Assembly (NCBI GenBank): GCA_963714015.1
Contig: OY970223.1
Location: forward strand, 928,001-992,000
Source: Vulcanimicrobiota bacterium
GTDB taxonomy: Bacteria; Vulcanimicrobiota; Vulcanimicrobiia; Vulcanimicrobiales; Vulcanimicrobiaceae
DNA length: 64,000 nucleotides
Direction of reading: 5' to 3'
In this document: one piece after another, positions 13,414-29,409 of the stretch
How the letters are laid out: every line of letters starts with the position of its first letter
Numbering within the stretch: position 1 is the first letter of the stretch
Made by a program: the position numbers and the translations under genes
Notes under the pieces: generated by a model
Told to the model about the DNA's origin: nothing
The model's input: the letters and a program-made list of their open reading frames with translations, nothing else
Databases searched by the model: none

Positions 13414-14268
13414 CTATTGCGGTTTTGGCAAGACGTCCCCTCGCAGCCGCTTGCGGTCGCCGGCCCGCGCATAAAGATGACGCCGCGCGCCGAGGCCCCG
13501 TTCGGAAAGCGCCTTCGCGATAGCCGACACGGCGGTGCCCGCATCCAGCAGCACGTCGATCTCGCGATCCACGTCGGCCTGCGCCGGAGCAGCCGGTAAG
13601 GCCGCAAGCGACGGACGAATCGCCAGCGCGATTTCACCGCGCACGGGCTCAGGCAATTCCGCGGCGACTTGGGCGGCTTTGCCGGCGATTTGCTGCTCGT
13701 AGCGTTTGGTGTACTCCCGCAACAAGAAAACGTCGGCTTGCGGATCCACGGCCTCGACGTCCGAAAGGAACGCGACAATCCGCTGCGGCGACTCGTACCA
13801 GATGCTCGGTACCCCGAGGGCGAAGCTTTGTGCCAGCGCTTCGCGGCGCGGTCCGGACGAGCGCGGCGCGAACCCTTCGAAGACGAAGCGCCGCAAGGGG
13901 AAGCCCGAAAGCACGGCGGCTCCTATCGCGGCGCTGGCACCGGGGAGCACTTCGATTGGTATGTCGCGCTCGCGCGCCAAGGCAACGAGCTCGTTGCCCG
14001 GGTCCGAGATTCCGGGCATGCCGGCGTCGGTGACGACGGCAACCAGCTCGCTCCGAGCGCGATCCAAAATCCCCGAAGCCGCCGCCTGCGCGTTGTGTTC
14101 GTGATAACTCCAGATCTCTTTTCCCGGCAGCCCGAGGGCGCTGAGCAGTTTGCGCGCAACGCGCGAATCCTCTGCGACGAGCAGATCGCATTCTTTCAAA
14201 ACGTCGAGCGAGCGCAAGGTGACGTCGCGAAGGTTGCCCAGCGGCGTCGGAACGAAGACGAGCGGCAT
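13414..14268 (-). CDS. rsmI: 16S rRNA (cytidine1402-2'-O)-methyltransferase
   Basis: VPTPLGNLRDVT, AEDSR, DAGMPGISDPG, YESPQR, REYTKRYE, RGE. Confidence 0.95.
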   Translation of the reverse strand: MPLVFVPTPLGNLRDVTLRSLDVLKECDLLVAEDSRVARKLLSALGLPGKEIWSYHEHNAQAAASGILDRARSELVAVVTDAGMPGISDPGNELVALARERDIPIEVLPGASAAIGAAVLSGFPLRRFVFEGFAPRSSGPRREALAQSFALGVPSIWYESPQRIVAFLSDVEAVDPQADVFLLREYTKRYEQQIAGKAAQVAAELPEPVRGEIALAIRPSLAALPAAPAQADVDREIDVLLDAGTAVSAIAKALSERGLGARRHLYARAGDRKRLRGDVLPKPQ

Positions 14269-14539
14269 GGCTGGGCAATTCGACCCGCGGCGCATCCCTC
14301 CGGGCGCCAAGCTGGAGCTCTTTATCAGCCCGAGCTGCCCGTACTGCCGCGAGGCCATGGCCTTCTACGATTCCGCCGGCCTGCCTTACAGCACTCACGA
14401 TGCTCAAAACGATTCTGCGGCGCGGACCCGGATGTTCTCTTACACCGGCGGCGACCCGACGGTTCCGGCGATCGTCGTGGACGGAATCTACCGTCAATCG
14501 GGTTGGGGAAGCCCGCCCCGGGGCTGAACGGTACATTAA
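14267..14539 (+). CDS. Glutaredoxin-like protein, probable C-terminal selenoprotein (UGA 14525-14527 read as Sec; otherwise ends at 14527)
   Basis: CPYC, TVPAIVVDG, tail GWGSPPRG-TGA-TVH-TAA followed by a SECIS-like hairpin. Confidence 0.8.
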
Positions 14540-14543
14540 CTTC

Positions 14544-14561
14544 GCTGTCCGGTCGGGCAGC
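14544..14561 (+). promoter_or_regulatory. Candidate bacterial SECIS element
   Basis: Stem GCTGTCC/GGGCAGC with GGTC loop; stem starts 16 nt after the in-frame TGA. Confidence 0.65.
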
Positions 14562-14620
14562 ACCATCAACGAACGTTAACGGCCCCGGCCGTTCACGCCG
14601 ATATTCCAAACGCAGGCTTC

Positions 14621-16216
14621 ATGATTCGCACACGCACACTGCCGCGTTTGGCACCATCGACCGTTCGCAGGCCGCGTTTAGAACGCTGGCTGGCGACGCA
14701 CGTCGCCGTTCCGCTGCGCTTGCTGGTTGCACCGGCCGGATCCGGCAAGACGACGCTGCTGCTCAAGTATTTGCCGAACAGCGTCGTGGACGCGGCGTAT
14801 TGCGCCCTGCCGCCCAATTGCAATGCGACTACACTCCGGGAAGCCGTCGCGGCGGCGTTTGCCCTTCCGCGCGTGCCGCCTTCGTACGACGACCTCGTCA
14901 TGGCTCTGCGCTCTCTCGTCTTTGAACCGACGGAGCTGGCCGTCGACGACGTCGACAACGCCTCACCCGAAGCGATGGACGAACTGCGCCGCCTGATTGA
15001 AGACGCGCCCGAGCATCTGACGTTCATCTATACTTCGCGTTCGCGCGACGCCATCGACGCCAAGACCTGGATAGCGCGCGGGCTGGCGGTCCTCTGCGAT
15101 CACCGGCGGCTCGCGTTCGATTCGGCGGAGACCGAACTGCTCGCCGAAACCTGCGGAGTAGCTTCGTCCCATCTGGACATCGGCCGGCTGCTCGAAGAGA
15201 GCGATGGTTGGGCTATCGTCGCTTGCGGCGCCGTTCGGGCCGTGGCCGAAGACGGCCGGTCGCTGAGCGACGCCTACGAACACTGGCGTGGGCGTTACGG
15301 ACAGCTGTTCACCGAATTCATCGCCGCCGAACTGGAACGCGCTCCCGAAGAAGATCGCGCGCTCGTGCGCAGTCTCATCGCGGGCGCAACCGCCGACGAT
15401 CAGGAACGCCTCCATGCGCTGGAGATGCAGGGCTTGTTCGTCGTCGGCGACGACGACGGGTATCGTCCTCTTCGCCCTATCCGGCAACTGCGCGGCCGAG
15501 GACGCTTGGCGCCCAGCGCGCGGCTTTCACCACTCGTGGTCAGGATGTTCGGCAGATTCACGGCCCAGATCGAATCGCAGGAAGTAAACTGGATCCGGCG
15601 GCGCGATCAGCAGTTCATCAAATACTTGCTTCTCAAGCCGTCGGGTTCGGCCACTCGCGCCGAGCTCGCTTCGATATTTTGGCCGGACGCCGATCGGCAA
15701 CTGGCGGCGCAGAGCGTACGCACGGCGTGCAGCAACATTCGCAAAGCGATCGCCGCGCAAGTCGGCTATGCGTGCGTGGATCTCTATTTCCGAGCCGATC
15801 CGGACGTCGCGCTGAACCTTACGAACGTGGTCGCAGACGTCCGCCGTTTCACCGCGCACGTCGCAGACGGCGATTCCGGTTTCGATCGCGGCGACACGCA
15901 GGAAGCGGCCGTTCACTATCGCGCCGCTGAAGAACTCTACACGGGCCGTTTGCTCGATGGCGACGTACCCGAGCCGTGGTTCTCGGGCCATGCGCAGCTC
16001 CTCGAGGACCGTTACGTCATCGTGCTCGAACGTTTGGCGCAGACTGCGTTCGACGAAGGCGATATGAAGAGCGCCGCAGAGTACGCCTATCGCGTACAGC
16101 GCATTCGCCCCGACGCGAGCGGTCTGGTCAAGATGCTCGGCCAGATCACGCCGCAATATTCGGGTGCCGAGTCGGGCGCATTCGAGAATCGCCGGCGCAA
16201 AAGCGCCGGTGCGTAA
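14621..16216 (+). CDS. Transcriptional activator: MalT-like P-loop domain + winged HTH + BTAD (regulator 1)
   Basis: RRPRL..APAGSGKTTL; TRAELASIFWPD..SVRTACSNIRKA; ADVRRF; LYTGRLLDG..PWF. Confidence 0.85.
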   Translation: MIRTRTLPRLAPSTVRRPRLERWLATHVAVPLRLLVAPAGSGKTTLLLKYLPNSVVDAAYCALPPNCNATTLREAVAAAFALPRVPPSYDDLVMALRSLVFEPTELAVDDVDNASPEAMDELRRLIEDAPEHLTFIYTSRSRDAIDAKTWIARGLAVLCDHRRLAFDSAETELLAETCGVASSHLDIGRLLEESDGWAIVACGAVRAVAEDGRSLSDAYEHWRGRYGQLFTEFIAAELERAPEEDRALVRSLIAGATADDQERLHALEMQGLFVVGDDDGYRPLRPIRQLRGRGRLAPSARLSPLVVRMFGRFTAQIESQEVNWIRRRDQQFIKYLLLKPSGSATRAELASIFWPDADRQLAAQSVRTACSNIRKAIAAQVGYACVDLYFRADPDVALNLTNVVADVRRFTAHVADGDSGFDRGDTQEAAVHYRAAEELYTGRLLDGDVPEPWFSGHAQLLEDRYVIVLERLAQTAFDEGDMKSAAEYAYRVQRIRPDASGLVKMLGQITPQYSGAESGAFENRRRKSAGA

Positions 16217-17637
16217 GCACCTCCCTGCAATCGCCGCTATCGCGGCGACCTGTCTACTGCTGTGCTGGCAGACGTTTTCTCTGAGCCGCGGTCATGCGCT
16301 GCTCGGGGATTTTCGCGCATTTTACTGCGGTGGAAGGGTCGTCGCACACGGCGGAAATCCGTACGCCGCGGCACCCATCATGGCATGCGAATCGACTCCG
16401 CAGCCGTTCGGACTCCACAAATCGCCGCATGGTTTGGCGGAGCCCGTTCCATATCCGGGATACGCTTTCGCGCTCTTCGTGCCGTTTGCACTGCTGCCGT
16501 ACGTGCCGGCCGCGCTGCTGTGGACCGTCTTCATGATCGGCGCGTTGCTCGCTGCATGCGCGCTTCTGGCGCGCATCGTGGATCGGCCCTTCGCGAGCGC
16601 ACTCGCCGTCTTTGCGTTGGGATTCTCCGTTGCGATATGGCCTTATGGCGAAGTTGCCCCGCTGGGAGTTTTCGGTCTCGCGCTTGCCGCCTATTTGCTG
16701 CGTTCGGCTCGTCCGGCGCTCGCCGCACTTGCGCTCTGCTGCGCGGCCATACTTCCGCACGTCGCCGCCCCCGCATTCGCGGCCCTCTTCGTTTGGGAGC
16801 GCCGTTCGCGCATTGCGCTGATTGCCGCATGCGCGGCGCTGATCGCTTTCGATCTTGCCGTCGGAGGACCGGAGCTGGCCTTCAGCTACTTTGCACGCGT
16901 GCTGCCGGCACATTCGCAATCCGAGATCGGGTACGTCACGCAGTACGGTTTAACGTGGCTGCTTCACGCGCTCGGCGCCTCGAATGGCGCCGCCGTTGCT
17001 GCCGGAGACCTGTCCTACGCGGTAATGACCGTTTGCGGAATTTGGCTCGGCGGCGCGCTCGCCAAAAAGTACGCGGATCCCGCTTTCGTCGTGCTGCTTC
17101 CGGCCGCGTTCGCGCTGATCGGCGGACCGTTCGTGCACTACTCGGAGATCACGCTGGCTCTTCCGGCGTTGATGCTGTTCTACGCGCGTACGACCGGCCG
17201 TTTGCGGATCGGCCTTGCCGCTTCGCTGCTGCTGGTCGCCCTGCCGTGGCAGTCGTCGCTGCAAATCGAGTCTCGTTGCGGCGATCGTCGCAGCCTCGTT
17301 TGCGGTGGCCAGGCTGTACCTGCGACTTACGCCGCTTGCGGCGCTTCGCATCGCGCTGGTAACTGTAGCGTGGTGCGCCGTGGTGGTCGGGACGGGAGCC
17401 GCGTTCGGCGCGCAGCTTTCGGCCGGCGCGGCGCCGCACTTGGATCCGCATCTGGCGCAAGCGACATGGGCGGAATACGTGCGGACGAACATCTCCAGCG
17501 TGGGCATCGTGTGGATTCTCGCCAAGCTGCCGACTTGGACCGGCCTGGTGCTGCTAGCGGCTTGCGGTGCGTATGCCGTCGTGAAGAAAGATCTCGAACC
17601 GGCGGTCGCGATAAAACAGGCGCCAGTCGAGTCGTAG
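16209..17637 (+). CDS. GT87/DUF2029-like polytopic glycosyltransferase (frameshift near 17265)
   Basis: TM then GDFRAFYCGG, PYPGY..LFVPFALLP, many TMs; paralog of 45458-46882. Confidence 0.65.
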
Positions 17638-18967
17638 CGCGAGCGCTTGCGCGAGCGGCCGTCCGCTTTTCACGAGCACCGCGTCGGTGCCGTACCGATT
17701 CAGCAAACCATTCCAGCGCGGCGAAAGGTTTTGGACCGCCACGTAATCGTTCCATACCTGCTTGGGAAACGGGTCGCAGCGGCCGTCCACGAACGTGCGC
17801 AAGTTGTCGTAACGAAGCGCTAAACTGCACCAAGCAAAGTCTTCGCAGTACAGATTGTGCATGCCGGGCAGTCGCCCAAGCGCGGCAACCGCCGTACGCG
17901 GCAGATTAACGGCGGCAACTGCCGGAACTCGCGAGAGATTCACGACAATCGTAACGATGGCCAGAGCGGTCGCGCTGAAGACGAGCACTTCGCTGAAGCG
18001 TTCGTGCAAGACGACGTTGATTCGCATGTGCGAAGGCAGGACGGTGCTCAAGCGCTGCGCGGCCATCGGCGCAATGATGAGGGCCGCAAGCGGCAGATGC
18101 CGGACCGCCGCAAACGCCATCACGCAAGCCAGGGCAAACTGCATCCCGTCGCGCCAGCGTTCCCGCGGCGCCGCGATACCGAAATACGCGCAGATCCCAA
18201 GGAGCGGAAGAACGCCGCCGGCGAGCGCGGCGAAGAGAATGTCGCTCGGCTGCCATTCCGTGATCGTGGCCCGAATCGTGCTGGTCTCAAGGCCAAATGC
18301 GTAGGCCGGAAGCTGCCAGAGCAACGGCGTCAGAAACACCGCGAAAACGCAGCCGGCAGTTAGGACTGCATTGCGCTCGACGCGTTCGGTCCAGCGGCGA
18401 TCCTCGATCAGCGTTCCGGCCGTCCAGGCGCCCACGATTACCGGCGCGATCATTGCGCTGGCATGCAGATTGGCCCAGAGCGCAACGATCGGGATGATCC
18501 AGAAAAGCCAAGCGTTCTCGAGATCGAGCAGCAGAAGTATCAAAGCCAGCAGCGGCCAGCCGAAAATTTGGGCACGCACGCCGAACGACTGCAGCATCGC
18601 GAGTCCCGTCAGTGTGGTCGTCAGTGCGATTGCAACGGTCGACGAACCGCGCCGGTACGATCGCCAAGCCGTAAGCAGAAGCGCGAGCGCCGCCGCCAGT
18701 GCGCTGAGAAATGCAAGGCTGCCGAAGCGGCCCTGCGGCAGCGTCGATGCAACCGCGAGGCTGAATGCCCATTCCTGCGGCACCCATTTGGCGCCGGCCG
18801 ACGTGAACGTCTCCGGTCCGAGCGAGTGCGGCAGCTGATGCGCCTGGATGACCTTCGCGCCGAGCCATTGCTGCCAGGCAAGATCGCCGTCTTGTCCCGG
18901 ATAGAACCATGCCGCCACCGACGAAACGCGCGAAAAAAATCGCCGCGACGGCCCACGCGATTCTCAT
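17554..18967 (-). CDS. Polytopic membrane protein, GT-C-like (frameshift near 18920)
   Basis: DGDLAWQQWLG, WVPQEWAF, LWANLHAS, ITEWQP, FVDGRCDPF pattern with about 10 TMs. Confidence 0.6.
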
Positions 18968-22910: not shown

Positions 22911-23219
22911 TTTAAAAGGCGCTCCGCTCTAAGCTCCGCGCCCCCCACGCTAAAGCGCGGGGCCCCCATAACCACGGCGCGCGCACGATTCGTTCCTGCG
23001 AAATCCTCCCCGTGGCCGCGCCAAACAACGTCTACCATTTTGAAAGGCGCTCCGCTCTAGCTCCGCGCCCCCCACGCTAAAGCGCGGGGCCCCCATAACC
23101 ACGGCGCGCGCACGATTTGATCCTGCGAAATCCTCCCCGTGGCCGGGTACTGCGCACATCCTGTGCTTGCCGGCATGCTCCCGTCCTGGTCGCGAGGCGC
23201 GCCCAACAACGTTTACCAT
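22908..23219. repeat. Two imperfect tandem copies of a 128-bp GC-rich structured repeat (second copy has a ~52-bp insert)
   Basis: Copies start at 22908 and 23036 (CATTTT.AAAGGCGCTCCGCTCT...CCCCGTGGCCG); internal hairpin CCCCACGCTAAAGCGCGGGG. Confidence 0.9.
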
Positions 23220-25312
23220 AAAGCACCGGCTGAGGCGAGCTGGGAGAGGTTGCGGACGTCGTACGTGATGCCGTACTCGTCGAATTTTTCGAGCGATTGC
23301 GGCTGGACGCCGGTGTACTGGAATTCGCCGGCGACCTTGTTTTCCAGATCCATGCCGTGCTGCGCGTACCGGAGGATCTCTTGCATCGTGACGACGTCGC
23401 CTTCCATGCCGATGATCTCGCTGACCGAGACGATCTTGCGGCTGCCGTCACGCAAACGGGCAATCTGCACGATCAGATCGACCGCGCTGGCAATCTGTTC
23501 GCGAATGGCGCGGACGGGCAGATCGAAGCCGGCCATCATGACGAGCGTCTCTAAGCGCGAGAGCGCGTCACGCGGCGAGTTGGCGTGCAGCGTGGTGAGC
23601 GAACCGTCGTGACCGGTATTCATGGCCTGAAGCATGTCCAGCGCTTCTCCGCCGCGGCACTCACCGACGACGATGCGGTCGGGGCGCATGCGCAGCGAGT
23701 TCCGCACCAGATCGCGGATCTTGATTTCGCCCGCGCCTTCGAGGTTGGCCGGACGCGTCTCCAAGCGCACGACGTGCGGCTGGTTCAAGTTGAGCTCGGC
23801 GGCGTCTTCGATGGTCACGATGCGTTCGCGCGCCGGAATGTAGCTCGACATGATATTAAGGAAGGTCGTTTTACCGGAGCCGGTGCCGCCGCTGATGACG
23901 ACGTTCAGCCGTCCTTCGATGCAGGCGCGCAGAAAGTCGAGCATCTGCTCGTTGGCCGAGCCTTTTTCGACCAGGTCTTGCGCGTTCAGGCGCCGCGTTC
24001 CGAAACGCCGGATCGTGAGCGACGCTCCATCGATGGCGAGCGGCTCGATGATGGCGTTGACGCGCGATCCGTCGGGCAGACGCGCATCGACCATCGGCAC
24101 GGATTCGTCCAAACGGCGGCCGAGCGGCGCGATGATGCGCTCGATGACCAGCCGCAGCTGTCCGGACGTGCTGAACCGCTTGCCCGTCAATTCCAGCTTA
24201 CCGGCGCGCTCGACGTAGACGGTCTTGCGGGCCGTTGACCATGATCTCGCTCACGGCGGGATCGGCCATCAAATCTTCCAGCGGTCCCAAACCAAGCGAC
24301 TCGTTCACGATCTCTTCGCGTATCTGCGAGATGTCCTCGGCGGTCAGTTCGTGCTGCGTCTTCTCGCTGAGCACTTGCTGCGTGGCCTCTTCGATCTTCG
24401 CGCGAAGTTCGGCGAGTTTTTCGGTGTCGCTGTGTGCGGCGCTGGCCTCGATCAGATTGACCTTGCTCGTAAGCGCTTCGTGAATCTCGAGTTTGAGCTT
24501 TTCACGCGGGTCGTATCGCCTCAGCCTCGGAAGCGCGCCGGCCGGGCGAGCCGGACGCGGCTTCGGCGGCACCCGCGGTACGCGGACGCATTGCGGTGCG
24601 CGGCTCCAAGCGGCGATCCTGAATCAGACCGCGCGCCGACGGCAAAAGCGCCTCGATCTGCGGTTCGGCCGTGATCGTGCGAATCGTCTGCGCTCGAGGC
24701 TCGCGAGTGCCTTCGCATAGTTGCGGTCGTCGTGCGCGGGGAGTTCGGCGATGATTTTCGTTTCCAGCGCGCGCTCGATCTCGGCGCGCGTTGCACTCGG
24801 GTTGCCGTCGCGGCAGTTCGTAAGCAGCACGATGCGCGTGATCGGGACGCCGAAGTTTTTCAGCTCGGCAGATCATCGTGCGCGCCGAGGCGATTCCCAG
24901 CAGCGTCGGTTCGGCAACGATTACGAAGCGAGTTGCGCGCACCACGAACGGACGCACGGGAGCGGAAAACGGAATCGGAACGTCCGCCAGAACGCAGTCC
25001 CCGGAGGAGAACGATGCGGCCAGTTGCTCGACGTCATCGAAGTTGATCGTAAACGCTGTGTCGTAAGTCGGCGCGAGTTCGGCGAGCGTAAGTCCGGCGA
25101 CTTCCGTTAAACCGATGCCCTTGCCGGCGCGCGAGGTATCGAGCGGGCGAACCGCGTCGAAGACGATTGCCATATTGCGGCGTCCCGGAGAGATCGCCGT
25201 CCACGACGACGACTTTCTGATCGGAGCGCAGAAGCTTGGCGAGTTCCGCGCAAACCGTGGTTGCGCCGGATCCGCCTTTTGCGTTGATGAACGCAAAGAC
25301 CGGCGAGCTCAT
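23213..25312 (-). CDS. cpaF: Fused TadZ/CpaE-like domain + Tad ATPase TadA/CpaF, locus 1 (several frameshifts)
   Basis: N-terminal [62 protein letters not shown]. Confidence 0.88.
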
Positions 25313-27980: not shown

Positions 27981-29409
27981 ATGCAGTTACGGACATTTGT
28001 CTTGTCGACGCTCGCGGCGTTCGCCGTTTTGGCTGCGCCTGCGCCCGCGCCGGCGGCCGAGGCCGTACAATCTTTATCGGTCGAATCGGGTCACTCACTG
28101 CTGTTGTACGACTCCGGGCCTCTCTCGGGTGGCCGTAGGCGACGGCCGCATCGCGGGCGTTCTGCCCATCGGAACCGCTCAGCTCGTCCTCAACGGGAAG
28201 GCGCCGGGCCAAACGACAGTCTTCGTCTGGGAGAACGGTCACCGCGCCGCCTACGAAGTGACCGTTACCGAACAGACCATGACGATCTGGCCGACATGCT
28301 GCGCACGTCGATTACCGTGCCGGGGATCGACGTGGTTCGCGTTCCGGGATTCGGTCGTACTGCGGGGCACGGTCGCGGACGGCGCGCAGTTCAATCAGGT
28401 CGACGAAGTACTCACGCGGTTTGCGGATTACGCGAAGAAGTCGAACTCCACGATCGTCAACGCGGTCACCATCGCGCATCCGCTCGGCTCTCTCCAAAGC
28501 GATCTGGCGGCGATACCGGGCGGGGGCAACATCCGCGTGGATCCGGACGGCAAGGGCAACGTCATCGTCAGCGGCCACGTGCACGACACGGTAACCGCTC
28601 AGGCCATTCTGGACCGGGCCAAGGACCTGGCCGGACCGTATCTTGCGGCGGACGGCAAGCTGATCAACCGCATCAGTACCGACGTGAACAGCGAGATCGA
28701 CGTGAAGGTCTACGTTCTGGAAGTCGATCGCACTGCGCTGAGCAATTTGGGCGTGCAGCTGCAGTCGGCGATCGCTTCAATCCCGACGGCACGTTACACG
28801 ATCGGACAGCCGAGCTTCCCGATCGTCGAGAACCCTGCGAATCTGCAGCCGGCTAAAGGCTTCACGATCTCCAACGCGTTCTTCCGTACCGTAACGCTGG
28901 CGCCGACGCTCAATTTATTAATTACCTCGGGACACGCGCACGTGCTTTCGTCGCCGAATTTGGTGACGACGCCCGGAAACGAGGCGACGTTTTTGGTCGG
29001 CGGCGAGATCCCGGTCATCTTCTCCACCGGCCTCGGCCAAGTCAGCGTAGTTTACAAAGATTACGGCGTGCAAGCTCGACGTGACGCCCATTATTCTGGG
29101 CAACGGCGGCATCGACGCCAAGATCAATCCCGAAGTCTCCGACCTGGACTTCCAGGACGGCGTCAACTACAACGGCTTCCTGGTGCCGGCGCTCAAAGAC
29201 GAGCAAACTCTCGACGGACGTCATCACGAAACCCGGCGAGTCGATCATCATGGGCGGCATGCTGCGCCGCGTCGAGCAGCGCAATATCGCCAAAGTTCCG
29301 CTGCTCTCGCGCATTCCGATCTTGGGCAAACTCTTTCAGTCCGACGTCCTATCAGAACGATCAAACCGACGTCGTTTTCGTGATGACGCCGGAGATCATT
29401 ACGCGATGA
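27981..29409 (+). CDS. cpaC: Tad secretin CpaC/RcpA with BON-like domains, locus 1 (multiple frameshifts)
   Basis: RVAVGDG..LVLNGKAPGQTTVFVW; VLSSPNLVTTPGNEATFLVGGEIP; KVPLLSRIPILGKLF; VFVMTPEII. Confidence 0.9.

Follow-up and report, generated by a model that had tools for sequence, protein, structure and literature searches.

We analysed a 64,000-nucleotide stretch of the genome of a Vulcanimicrobiota bacterium (GenBank assembly GCA_963714015.1, contig OY970223.1, positions 928,001 to 992,000 of the forward strand), referred to here as the window, in which a short glutaredoxin-like gene carries an in-frame TGA close to its 3' end. Comparison with related sequences indicates that positions 14267-14539 on the + strand very probably encode a glutaredoxin-fold selenoprotein, with the UGA at codon 87 read as selenocysteine (Sec, U) and three more residues added after it. 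In the window sequence the gene begins with ATG, has CPYC at codons 24-27, and runs from ...GWGSPPRG through TGA and ACG GTA CAT to TAA. The UGA-terminated open reading frame (ORF) covers 14267-14527, with 86 residues before the TGA. The encoded protein matches the Pfam family Glutaredoxin (PF00462) at 46 bits, against a cut-off of 22.9. A first-pass annotation of this DNA had read the end of the gene as G-U-T-V-H-stop on readthrough, and every element of that reading is found in place. The decisive evidence is comparative, and does not come from the single window sequence. The features of the gene, and of the putative selenocysteine insertion sequence (SECIS) that follows it, are given below, with lengths in nucleotides (nt) and base pairs (bp).

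14267..14539, + strand: coding sequence of the predicted glutaredoxin-like selenoprotein, 90 residues (M1...G86-U87-T88-V89-H90) plus TAA; orthologues align over residues 1-90
14336..14347, + strand: CPYC redox motif, Cys24-Pro-Tyr-Cys27; no variation at C24, P25 or Y26 among 87 aligned sequences
14525..14527, + strand: UGA, predicted to be read as selenocysteine, residue 87; TGA in 81/81 aligned sequences, and a Cys column in paralogues
14528..14536, + strand: post-UGA codons Thr-Val-His; variation is mostly third-position among 81 sequences
14537..14539, + strand: true stop TAA; in-frame stop position common to 80/81 sequences
14544..14561, + strand: candidate SECIS hairpin, wholly 3' of the stop; 7-bp stem, GGUC loop at 14551-14554, loop-UGA spacing 23 nt

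Conservation of the UGA codon, the tail and the hairpin

The main conclusions hold on the public loci alone (L045-L124). Unpublished genomes were included in the search of 40 relatives, in the tallies over 401 genomes of the phylum and in alignments A1 and A2. Among the 40 relatives we see 11 orthologues with 55-73% identity, each aligned through residue 90 with one TGA; by tblastn, the end of the protein reads ...G-stop-T-V-H in ten of them and T-V-Y in one. We also scanned bacteria and archaea, with each species represented by a single genome. This gave 307 stretches encoding relatives, and the best 80 of these 307 were used. All 80 are contigs of public metagenome-assembled genomes, the set overlaps the 11 orthologues, and nearly all the titles name Eremiobacteraeota, Vulcanimicrobiota, Baltobacteraceae or Candidatus Cybelea. 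Codon 87 is TGA in 80/80 of these public loci, and the tail after it is T-V-H in 59, T-I-H in 20 and T-V in 1, with a stop next in each.

Codon usage in the tail was tallied over 81 sequences, comprising the 80 public loci and the window. The Thr codon is ACG in 62, ACC in 18 and ACT in 1; the second codon is GTN in 61 and ATY in 20; the third is CAC in 61, CAT in 19 and TGA in 1. The true stop is TGA in 39, TAA in 22 and TAG in 19, and one sequence ends a codon earlier, such that three residues follow the U in 80/81 sequences and two in 1/81. Variation mainly at third positions, combined with an in-frame stop whose identity is interchangeable, is the signature of translated sequence. The first-pass annotation had proposed that homologues be aligned at this codon, and its expectation is borne out by the TGA in 80/80 public loci and 11/11 relatives and by the conserved T-[V/I]-H(Y) and stop that follow. 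The contrary pattern that it had named, of homologues with TAA or TAG at codon 87 and neither a Cys counterpart nor a hairpin, does not occur among the 81 sequences.

Taken alone, conserved codons after a UGA show that translation continues, and not which residue is inserted. It is nonetheless extremely unlikely that this UGA is read with a standard amino acid, be it through near-cognate Trp or Cys or through a reassigned code. TGA serves as the true stop four codons later in 39 of the 81 orthologues, so it is not a general sense codon and a reassigned code is excluded. There is also a SECIS-type hairpin at SECIS spacing, together with a full set of Sec machinery (described below), and paralogues with 31-43% identity have Cys in column 87, reading ...RG-C-Y-[V/I/A]... 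where the window has ...RG-U-T-V-H. This is the classic pairing of Sec and Cys. A Cys-form orthologue was found nowhere among the examined sequences, and a strict Sec without a Cys orthologue suggests chemistry that Cys cannot replace, so that the protein would be well worth studying biochemically.

The apical loop of the SECIS of Escherichia coli fdhF contains GGUC. The hairpin in the window consists of the arms GCTGTCC (14544-14550) and GGGCAGC (14555-14561) around GGTC (14551-14554), and has 7 pairs including one G-U. The first-pass annotation had described a GGUC stem-loop of 7 bp starting 16 nt after the TGA, which is indeed what the sequence contains, and conservation across relatives strengthens the case. 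For pair counts the 81 sequences were re-anchored on the loop by script; the MAFFT alignment A3, which misplaced several rows around the loop including that of the window, was left unused. A GGUC loop is present in 79/81 sequences; in 76 of these it closes an unbroken stem of 4 bp or more, and 3 have one mismatch or a 5-nt loop. Within the 76 contiguous-stem sequences there are 39 distinct stems, mostly of 6 bp (range 4-11 bp), and pairs 2-6 swap between G-C, C-G, A-U and U-A with 71-76 of the 76 paired. In the 76 sequences measured, the loop follows the UGA at a distance of 17-23 nt, which is 18 nt in 53. In 15/76 the stem partly overlaps the stop codon. The window hairpin lies wholly after it, with the TAA at 14537-14539 preceding the first arm, as the claim of a SECIS placed entirely within the 3' untranslated region (UTR) had it.

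Alignment A2, of 12 sequences, has 92.9% of its cells paired, compared to 67.2% when shuffled and 33-50% when the partners are slid. At five of the seven pairs both bases vary, and the alignment has a covariation score of 0.515, where shuffling gives 0.130 and 0/500 shuffles score as high. Unpublished genomes contributed two of the 12 rows, and the public set of 81 sequences gives the same picture. By itself the window hairpin folds with -10.8 kcal/mol (z -3.9, 0/200 shuffles as good). The bSECISearch model, as given in the accessible part of a 2026 review (PMC13188914), asks for a loop of 3-9 nt with a stem of 4-16 bp, a loop that opens with GG, a spacing of 16-37 nt and a minimum free energy of -7.5 kcal/mol or lower. 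The hairpin agrees with all four published constraints (loop 4 nt and stem 7 bp, GG, 23 nt, -10.8 kcal/mol), which answers the earlier suggestion that a bacterial SECIS prediction be run. We also counted hairpins with a GGTC loop on both strands of the 3.56-Mb genome, and found 226 with at least 5 bp and 43 with at least 7 bp. As such hairpins are rare genome-wide, a chance hit within the roughly 24 nt after a given TGA is unlikely.

A stem-loop directly after a gene is where a terminator would stand, and in a few relatives the stem is followed by 3-4 T. All database entries, moreover, are called as the 86-residue form. The TGA at 14525 might then be a real stop that closes an 86-residue glutaredoxin, with the conserved sequence and hairpin downstream being a terminator or another regulatory RNA. 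We consider this very unlikely. Most changes in the nine bases that follow the TGA fall at third positions, and these bases lead to an in-frame stop that may be any of the three, the paralogues have Cys aligned with the TGA, and the GGUC loop is invariant while the stem covaries, which fits a loop bound by protein and not a terminator. A terminator and promoter scan of 13900-14900 was negative, giving nothing at the hairpin, no promoter-like site and no T-run after the hairpin. A second G+C-rich palindrome, with 6-bp arms and a CCCG centre, lies at 14578-14593, after the candidate SECIS hairpin and before the next gene; transcription might in fact stop there, or a regulator might bind.

Selenocysteine machinery and points against Sec insertion

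The genome has a set of genes for Sec synthesis and insertion. ARAGORN finds one tRNA-Sec with anticodon TCA at C1:1050520-1050613. The selD gene, with a score of 379 bits, is a selenoprotein gene in its own right, with a TGA in frame in ...ACAG-U-ASK (L001:1531-1533, which is C1:525002-525004) and a hairpin carrying GGUC in its loop region about 32 nt downstream. The selA gene scores 465 bits, and pieces of selB lie directly beside it. The first-pass annotation had advised a search for the sel genes and had held that a genome without selABCD would speak against a selenoprotein; tRNA-Sec, selD, selA and selB are all found, with selA and selB frameshifted in this assembly. The close relatives G001, G009 and G011 have full-length selA and selB above curated cut-offs. 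Over the sample of 401 phylum genomes, selA is present in 340, and a genus with selA in 0/11 genomes also has the selenoprotein gene in 0/11. Relatives are not independent of one another, and the co-occurrence of selA with the gene was therefore used only as a test of consistency.

Several observations weigh against Sec insertion at this UGA. In its 41-nt context the hairpin folds with -12.3 kcal/mol but a z of only -1.4, with 19/200 shuffles as good in this G+C-rich DNA, and context folding of relatives gives z from -0.6 to -2.3. Because in-context folding of single sequences is not significant, we preferred covariation as evidence. The loop is CGUGA in 2/81 sequences. An Rfam scan of 14450-14650, with E up to 10, gave three chance-level matches and no SECIS family. 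The best NCBIfam match of the protein is NF041212 (Uxx-star), for which the truncated form scores 45.4 bits and the readthrough form 45.5, below the cut-off of 66, with only profile positions 2-58 of 70 aligned. The fragmented genomes G228 and G263 (200 and 280 contigs) carry the gene without a selA match. Finally, one frameshift interrupts selA, and selB lies in three pieces and two frames, all within about 3.2 kb (C1:1032442-1035666); were these frameshifts real, the strain would make only the 86-residue product.

The frameshifts bring in another explanation, namely that the Sec system is decaying in this strain and the gene is a relic yielding only an 86-residue protein here, though a true selenoprotein gene in relatives. 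One frame switch in selA, the broken selB and a frameshift in a Cys-containing paralogue beside a hypF-like gene would all suit such decay. Against it, the essential gene rpoC is also split over two frames (C1:2063474-2066972), and no damage is seen in the UGA, the codons of the tail, the SECIS or the Sec codon of selD. The selA frame switch falls around a short G/C run, and the assembly is a single contig with 89.6% estimated completeness. As an essential gene is frameshifted too, indel errors of assembly are the simpler reading and the most likely cause of the selA and selB frameshifts. We judge decay in this strain to be very improbable, and Sec insertion at UGA87 to be the better account of the gene. 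Indel errors of this kind would affect any gene-level reading of this genome.

Genomic setting, distribution and annotation of the gene

Upstream, the selenoprotein gene stands head-to-head with a gene for an rsmI-like methyltransferase, included here as context only:

13414..14268, - strand: rsmI-like methyltransferase gene, divergent; PF00590, 92.8 bits

The start codons of the selenoprotein gene (+ strand) and the rsmI-like gene (- strand) overlap in a CATG palindrome at 14266-14269, and this overlap is kept in 58 of the 67 loci in which both alignments begin at or near residue 1. With no intergenic promoter region, each promoter must lie inside the other gene, and the mRNAs of the pair may be leaderless or mutually antisense. 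The rsmI-like gene is divergently upstream in 84/91 loci, with metG beyond it in 75/91. This conserved housekeeping neighbourhood gives no clue to a pathway.

Downstream, the first-pass annotation had placed the gene immediately upstream of the first regulator of a Tad locus. The placement is correct for the window, but the adjacency is not conserved, as the AAA/BTAD regulator is adjacent in only 11/91 loci; the idea of a functional link to this regulator was rejected on that ground. A gene for a small membrane protein of about 100 residues lies on the same strand, some 60 nt downstream, in 55 of the 80 public loci (L045:3331-3639 and 54 others), and in the window the AAA/BTAD regulator takes its position. 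Clustering of downstream ORFs was noisy, owing to spurious ORFs in G+C-rich DNA, and only the small membrane protein and a convergent Xaa-Pro aminopeptidase-like gene were seen. The label of the latter is a reading of its sequence, and neither downstream gene informs function. Further along the window we see a GT87-type membrane glycosyltransferase (16164-17909), a T2SSE/CpaF-like ATPase (23213-24190, - strand) and a secretin with a pilus N-terminal domain (27997-29409). These three genes fit a Tad-like pilus locus, and are unlinked to the selenoprotein in most relatives.

The distribution within the phylum was assessed in an even sample of 401 genomes, for which 150 matches were listed and 30 further matches were not. 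The gene is present in 179/401 genomes: 177/296 of the window's family, 1/30 of a second family and none elsewhere. It thus occurs in 1/104 genomes of families other than that of the window, and the clade is essentially confined, within the phylum, to one family of Eremiobacterota. All 150 matches listed have one TGA. Overall, the selenoprotein gene is common in soil Eremiobacterota. Four contigs with titles of Babeliales, Verrucomicrobiia or Acidiferrales (L054, L068, L076 and L124) also carry the gene. Three of the four have enough flank and keep rsmI-metG, with rsmI 59-64% and metG 66-74% identical to those of the window; L124 has rsmI alone in its flank, at 61% identity. The bin labels of these four contigs look doubtful.

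A protein database search gave 228 homologues. The best 120 of these, which were listed, are nearly all 86 residues long, and none of them covers more than 96% of the 90-residue query. This is in line with the earlier claim that gene callers would truncate the protein. Names in the database are glutaredoxin, glutaredoxin 3, glutaredoxin domain-containing protein and GST N-terminal domain-containing protein. More than 100 listed public protein records thus end at a Sec codon, if the reading given here is correct, and a selenoprotein clade so far without annotation would be added to an uncultured soil phylum. As curated models with fixed cut-offs miss the clade, counts of the selenoproteome for this phylum are too low.

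Predicted fold, redox model and relation to known systems

AlphaFold2, run on the 87-sequence alignment, predicts a glutaredoxin fold (pLDDT 93.1, pTM 0.84) in which the C-terminal helix usual for such proteins is missing. Cys stood in for Sec in the model, and the tail residues 81-90 have a mean pLDDT of 93. The nearest solved structures found by Foldseek are NrdH-like BC3987, Synechocystis GrxA and the Clostridium oremlandii glutaredoxins (7c10, 4tr0; TM about 0.6).

The 87-sequence alignment spans three clades (A, B and C), and its only invariant columns are C24, P25, Y26, P67, G79 and U/C87. G86 is nearly invariant across these sequences, and both CPY and G86 are invariant in the alignment of 12 orthologues. 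C27 is likewise nearly invariant, with Thr (CPYT) in four aligned sequences of clade C and in the copy of that clade in this genome, and Ser (CPYS) in one orthologue.

Clade B contains a TGA and is found in another family of the class (L029, L031, L032, L034, L036, L037, L041 and L043, at about 1498-1760 in each). Its proteins have 74 residues and end ...VGFGGG-U-x-[I/V]-H-stop in 6/8 loci read, while the other 2 add D or E. The CGUGA type of loop occurs in several clade B loci too; read by eye, the hairpin after the stop in these apparently has a CGUGN loop rather than GGUC. Clade C has Cys in column 87, as ...G-R-G-C-Y-[V/I/A] followed by 2-5 residues (L027, L028, L030, L033, L039, L042 and L044), and in most of its members the N-terminal motif is CPYT. 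It directly adjoins, on the upstream side, a hypF-like gene, a label given from its N-terminal motif. This position points to a possible role in hydrogenase maturation. The clade C copy of this genome lies at about C1:3108249-3108480, is frameshifted in the assembly and reads CPYT.

In the mechanism that we propose, the hairpin, which has a GGUC loop on a stem of 6-7 bp and starts 12-17 nt beyond the UGA, would recruit SelB with Sec-tRNA(Sec) at UGA87. Sec insertion would be followed by addition of Thr-Val-His and termination at the next stop. Only three codons and a stop follow the UGA, which places the SECIS in the 3' UTR. The C-terminal Gly-Sec may act as another redox centre and cooperate with Cys24, the invariant first residue of CPYC; the link between them would probably be a Cys24-Sec87 selenenylsulfide, and Cys27 might help to resolve or recycle it. 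On this view the protein would be a small thiol/selenol oxidoreductase. The invariance of C24 and U/C87 alongside a replaceable C27 fits such a redox pair with C27 as an optional resolving thiol, as does the UxxT motif with two Sec residues listed for UXX-star family 1. We regard this redox-pair model, which draws on residue conservation and the predicted structure, as evenly balanced between right and wrong. Metal binding has been proposed too for the Sec residues of UXX-star proteins, according to the accessible part of the review cited above (PMC13188914), and is an alternative to the redox pair; the two ideas are not separated by our data.

The C-terminal arm of mammalian thioredoxin reductase (TrxR) shuttles electrons with an N-terminal dithiol centre. 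A more specific and tentative picture, in which we have more doubt than confidence, is that the window's clade is a distinct and strictly Sec-dependent family of Baltobacteraceae-type Eremiobacterota. Its members might have acquired, on a glutaredoxin scaffold, a selenol arm like that of TrxR, with a Sec87-Cys24 selenenylsulfide recycled by Cys27 and a 3'-UTR SECIS among the smallest in nature (6-bp stem, GGUC loop), and might be encoded by a core housekeeping gene set head-to-head with rsmI via CATG. Apart from this picture, the hairpin would be a natural and very compact bacterial SECIS that stays untranslated, its loop fixed as GGUC and its stem free in sequence. Such an element could serve to study how SelB recognises its target, and might also be used to append Sec to the C-terminus of recombinant proteins.

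The closest curated relatives are the Uxx-star proteins of NF041212, whose sub-models are NF041114 (family 1), NF041211 (family 2), NF047338 (family 3) and NF045501 (HUGP/GUXX-star fusion). The family name reads as U-X-X-stop. UXX-star families were reportedly described by Haft and Gwadz in 2023 and by Haft and Tolstoy in 2025. The earlier suggestion of a likeness to these proteins holds in part. The window protein shares with them the small glutaredoxin fold, an N-terminal [C/U]xx[C/T] motif, a Gly before the C-terminal Sec/Cys and a post-stop SECIS. As in bacterial selenoprotein genes generally, orthologues keep both the in-frame TGA and the coding sequence that follows, and there are homologues with Cys aligned to the TGA, all of them paralogues and one in this genome. 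The likeness fails in the score (45.4 against 66 bits) and in the tail, which is U-T-V-H-stop in the window and U-X-X-X-stop in 80/81 sequences. The window protein is also extended by 15 residues at its N-terminus, and the linker that leads to the Sec, ...Y-x-Q-SGWG-x-PP-x-G, is longer. Since the score cut-off and the tail are two defining features, we did not file it as a Uxx-star member. Clade B scores 89-99 bits over the whole NF041212 profile, with one extra C-terminal residue and all four members tested above the cut-off, and clade C scores 59-71 bits. In short, the window's clade is a divergent sister of the NF041212 family.

UXX-star families appear in the accessible part of the same 2026 review (PMC13188914), where family 1 has a UxxT motif and two Sec residues. 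A full-text literature search combining Eremiobacterota with selenocysteine or selenoprotein returned nothing; the primary UXX-star papers may mention the clade. In the accessible part of the GOS paper (PMC2398784), the glutaredoxin-like selenoproteins listed are of the UxxC type only, and a search of the deep-Sep paper (PMC12013277) for the term glutaredoxin found no mention.

Compared to the Sec-glutaredoxins of Clostridia (C. oremlandii cGrx1/cGrx2), the window protein has the same fold, and both would be selenoprotein glutaredoxins. In the clostridial proteins, as described in the accessible part of PMC13188914, Sec replaces the first Cys of CxxC (giving UxxC) and the SECIS is inside the coding region. 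The window protein, in contrast, keeps CPYC and would have its Sec at the C-terminus. With the bacterial SECIS of the E. coli fdhF type, and with the bSECISearch model, the hairpin shares a stem-loop shortly after the UGA and G in the first loop positions, but the complete fdhF element is far longer, and the hairpin, unlike it, is not translated. In E. coli, insertion of Sec at the C-terminus is supported by a bacterial SECIS located in the 3' UTR (PMC10778597). The likeness to the Gly-Cys-Sec-Gly arm of mammalian TrxR is that of a Sec near the C-terminus on a tail, with a bacterial SECIS that works after the stop in E. coli. The TrxR case differs in its unrelated flavoenzyme fold and in being an engineered construct, and the window protein has no Cys adjacent to its predicted Sec.

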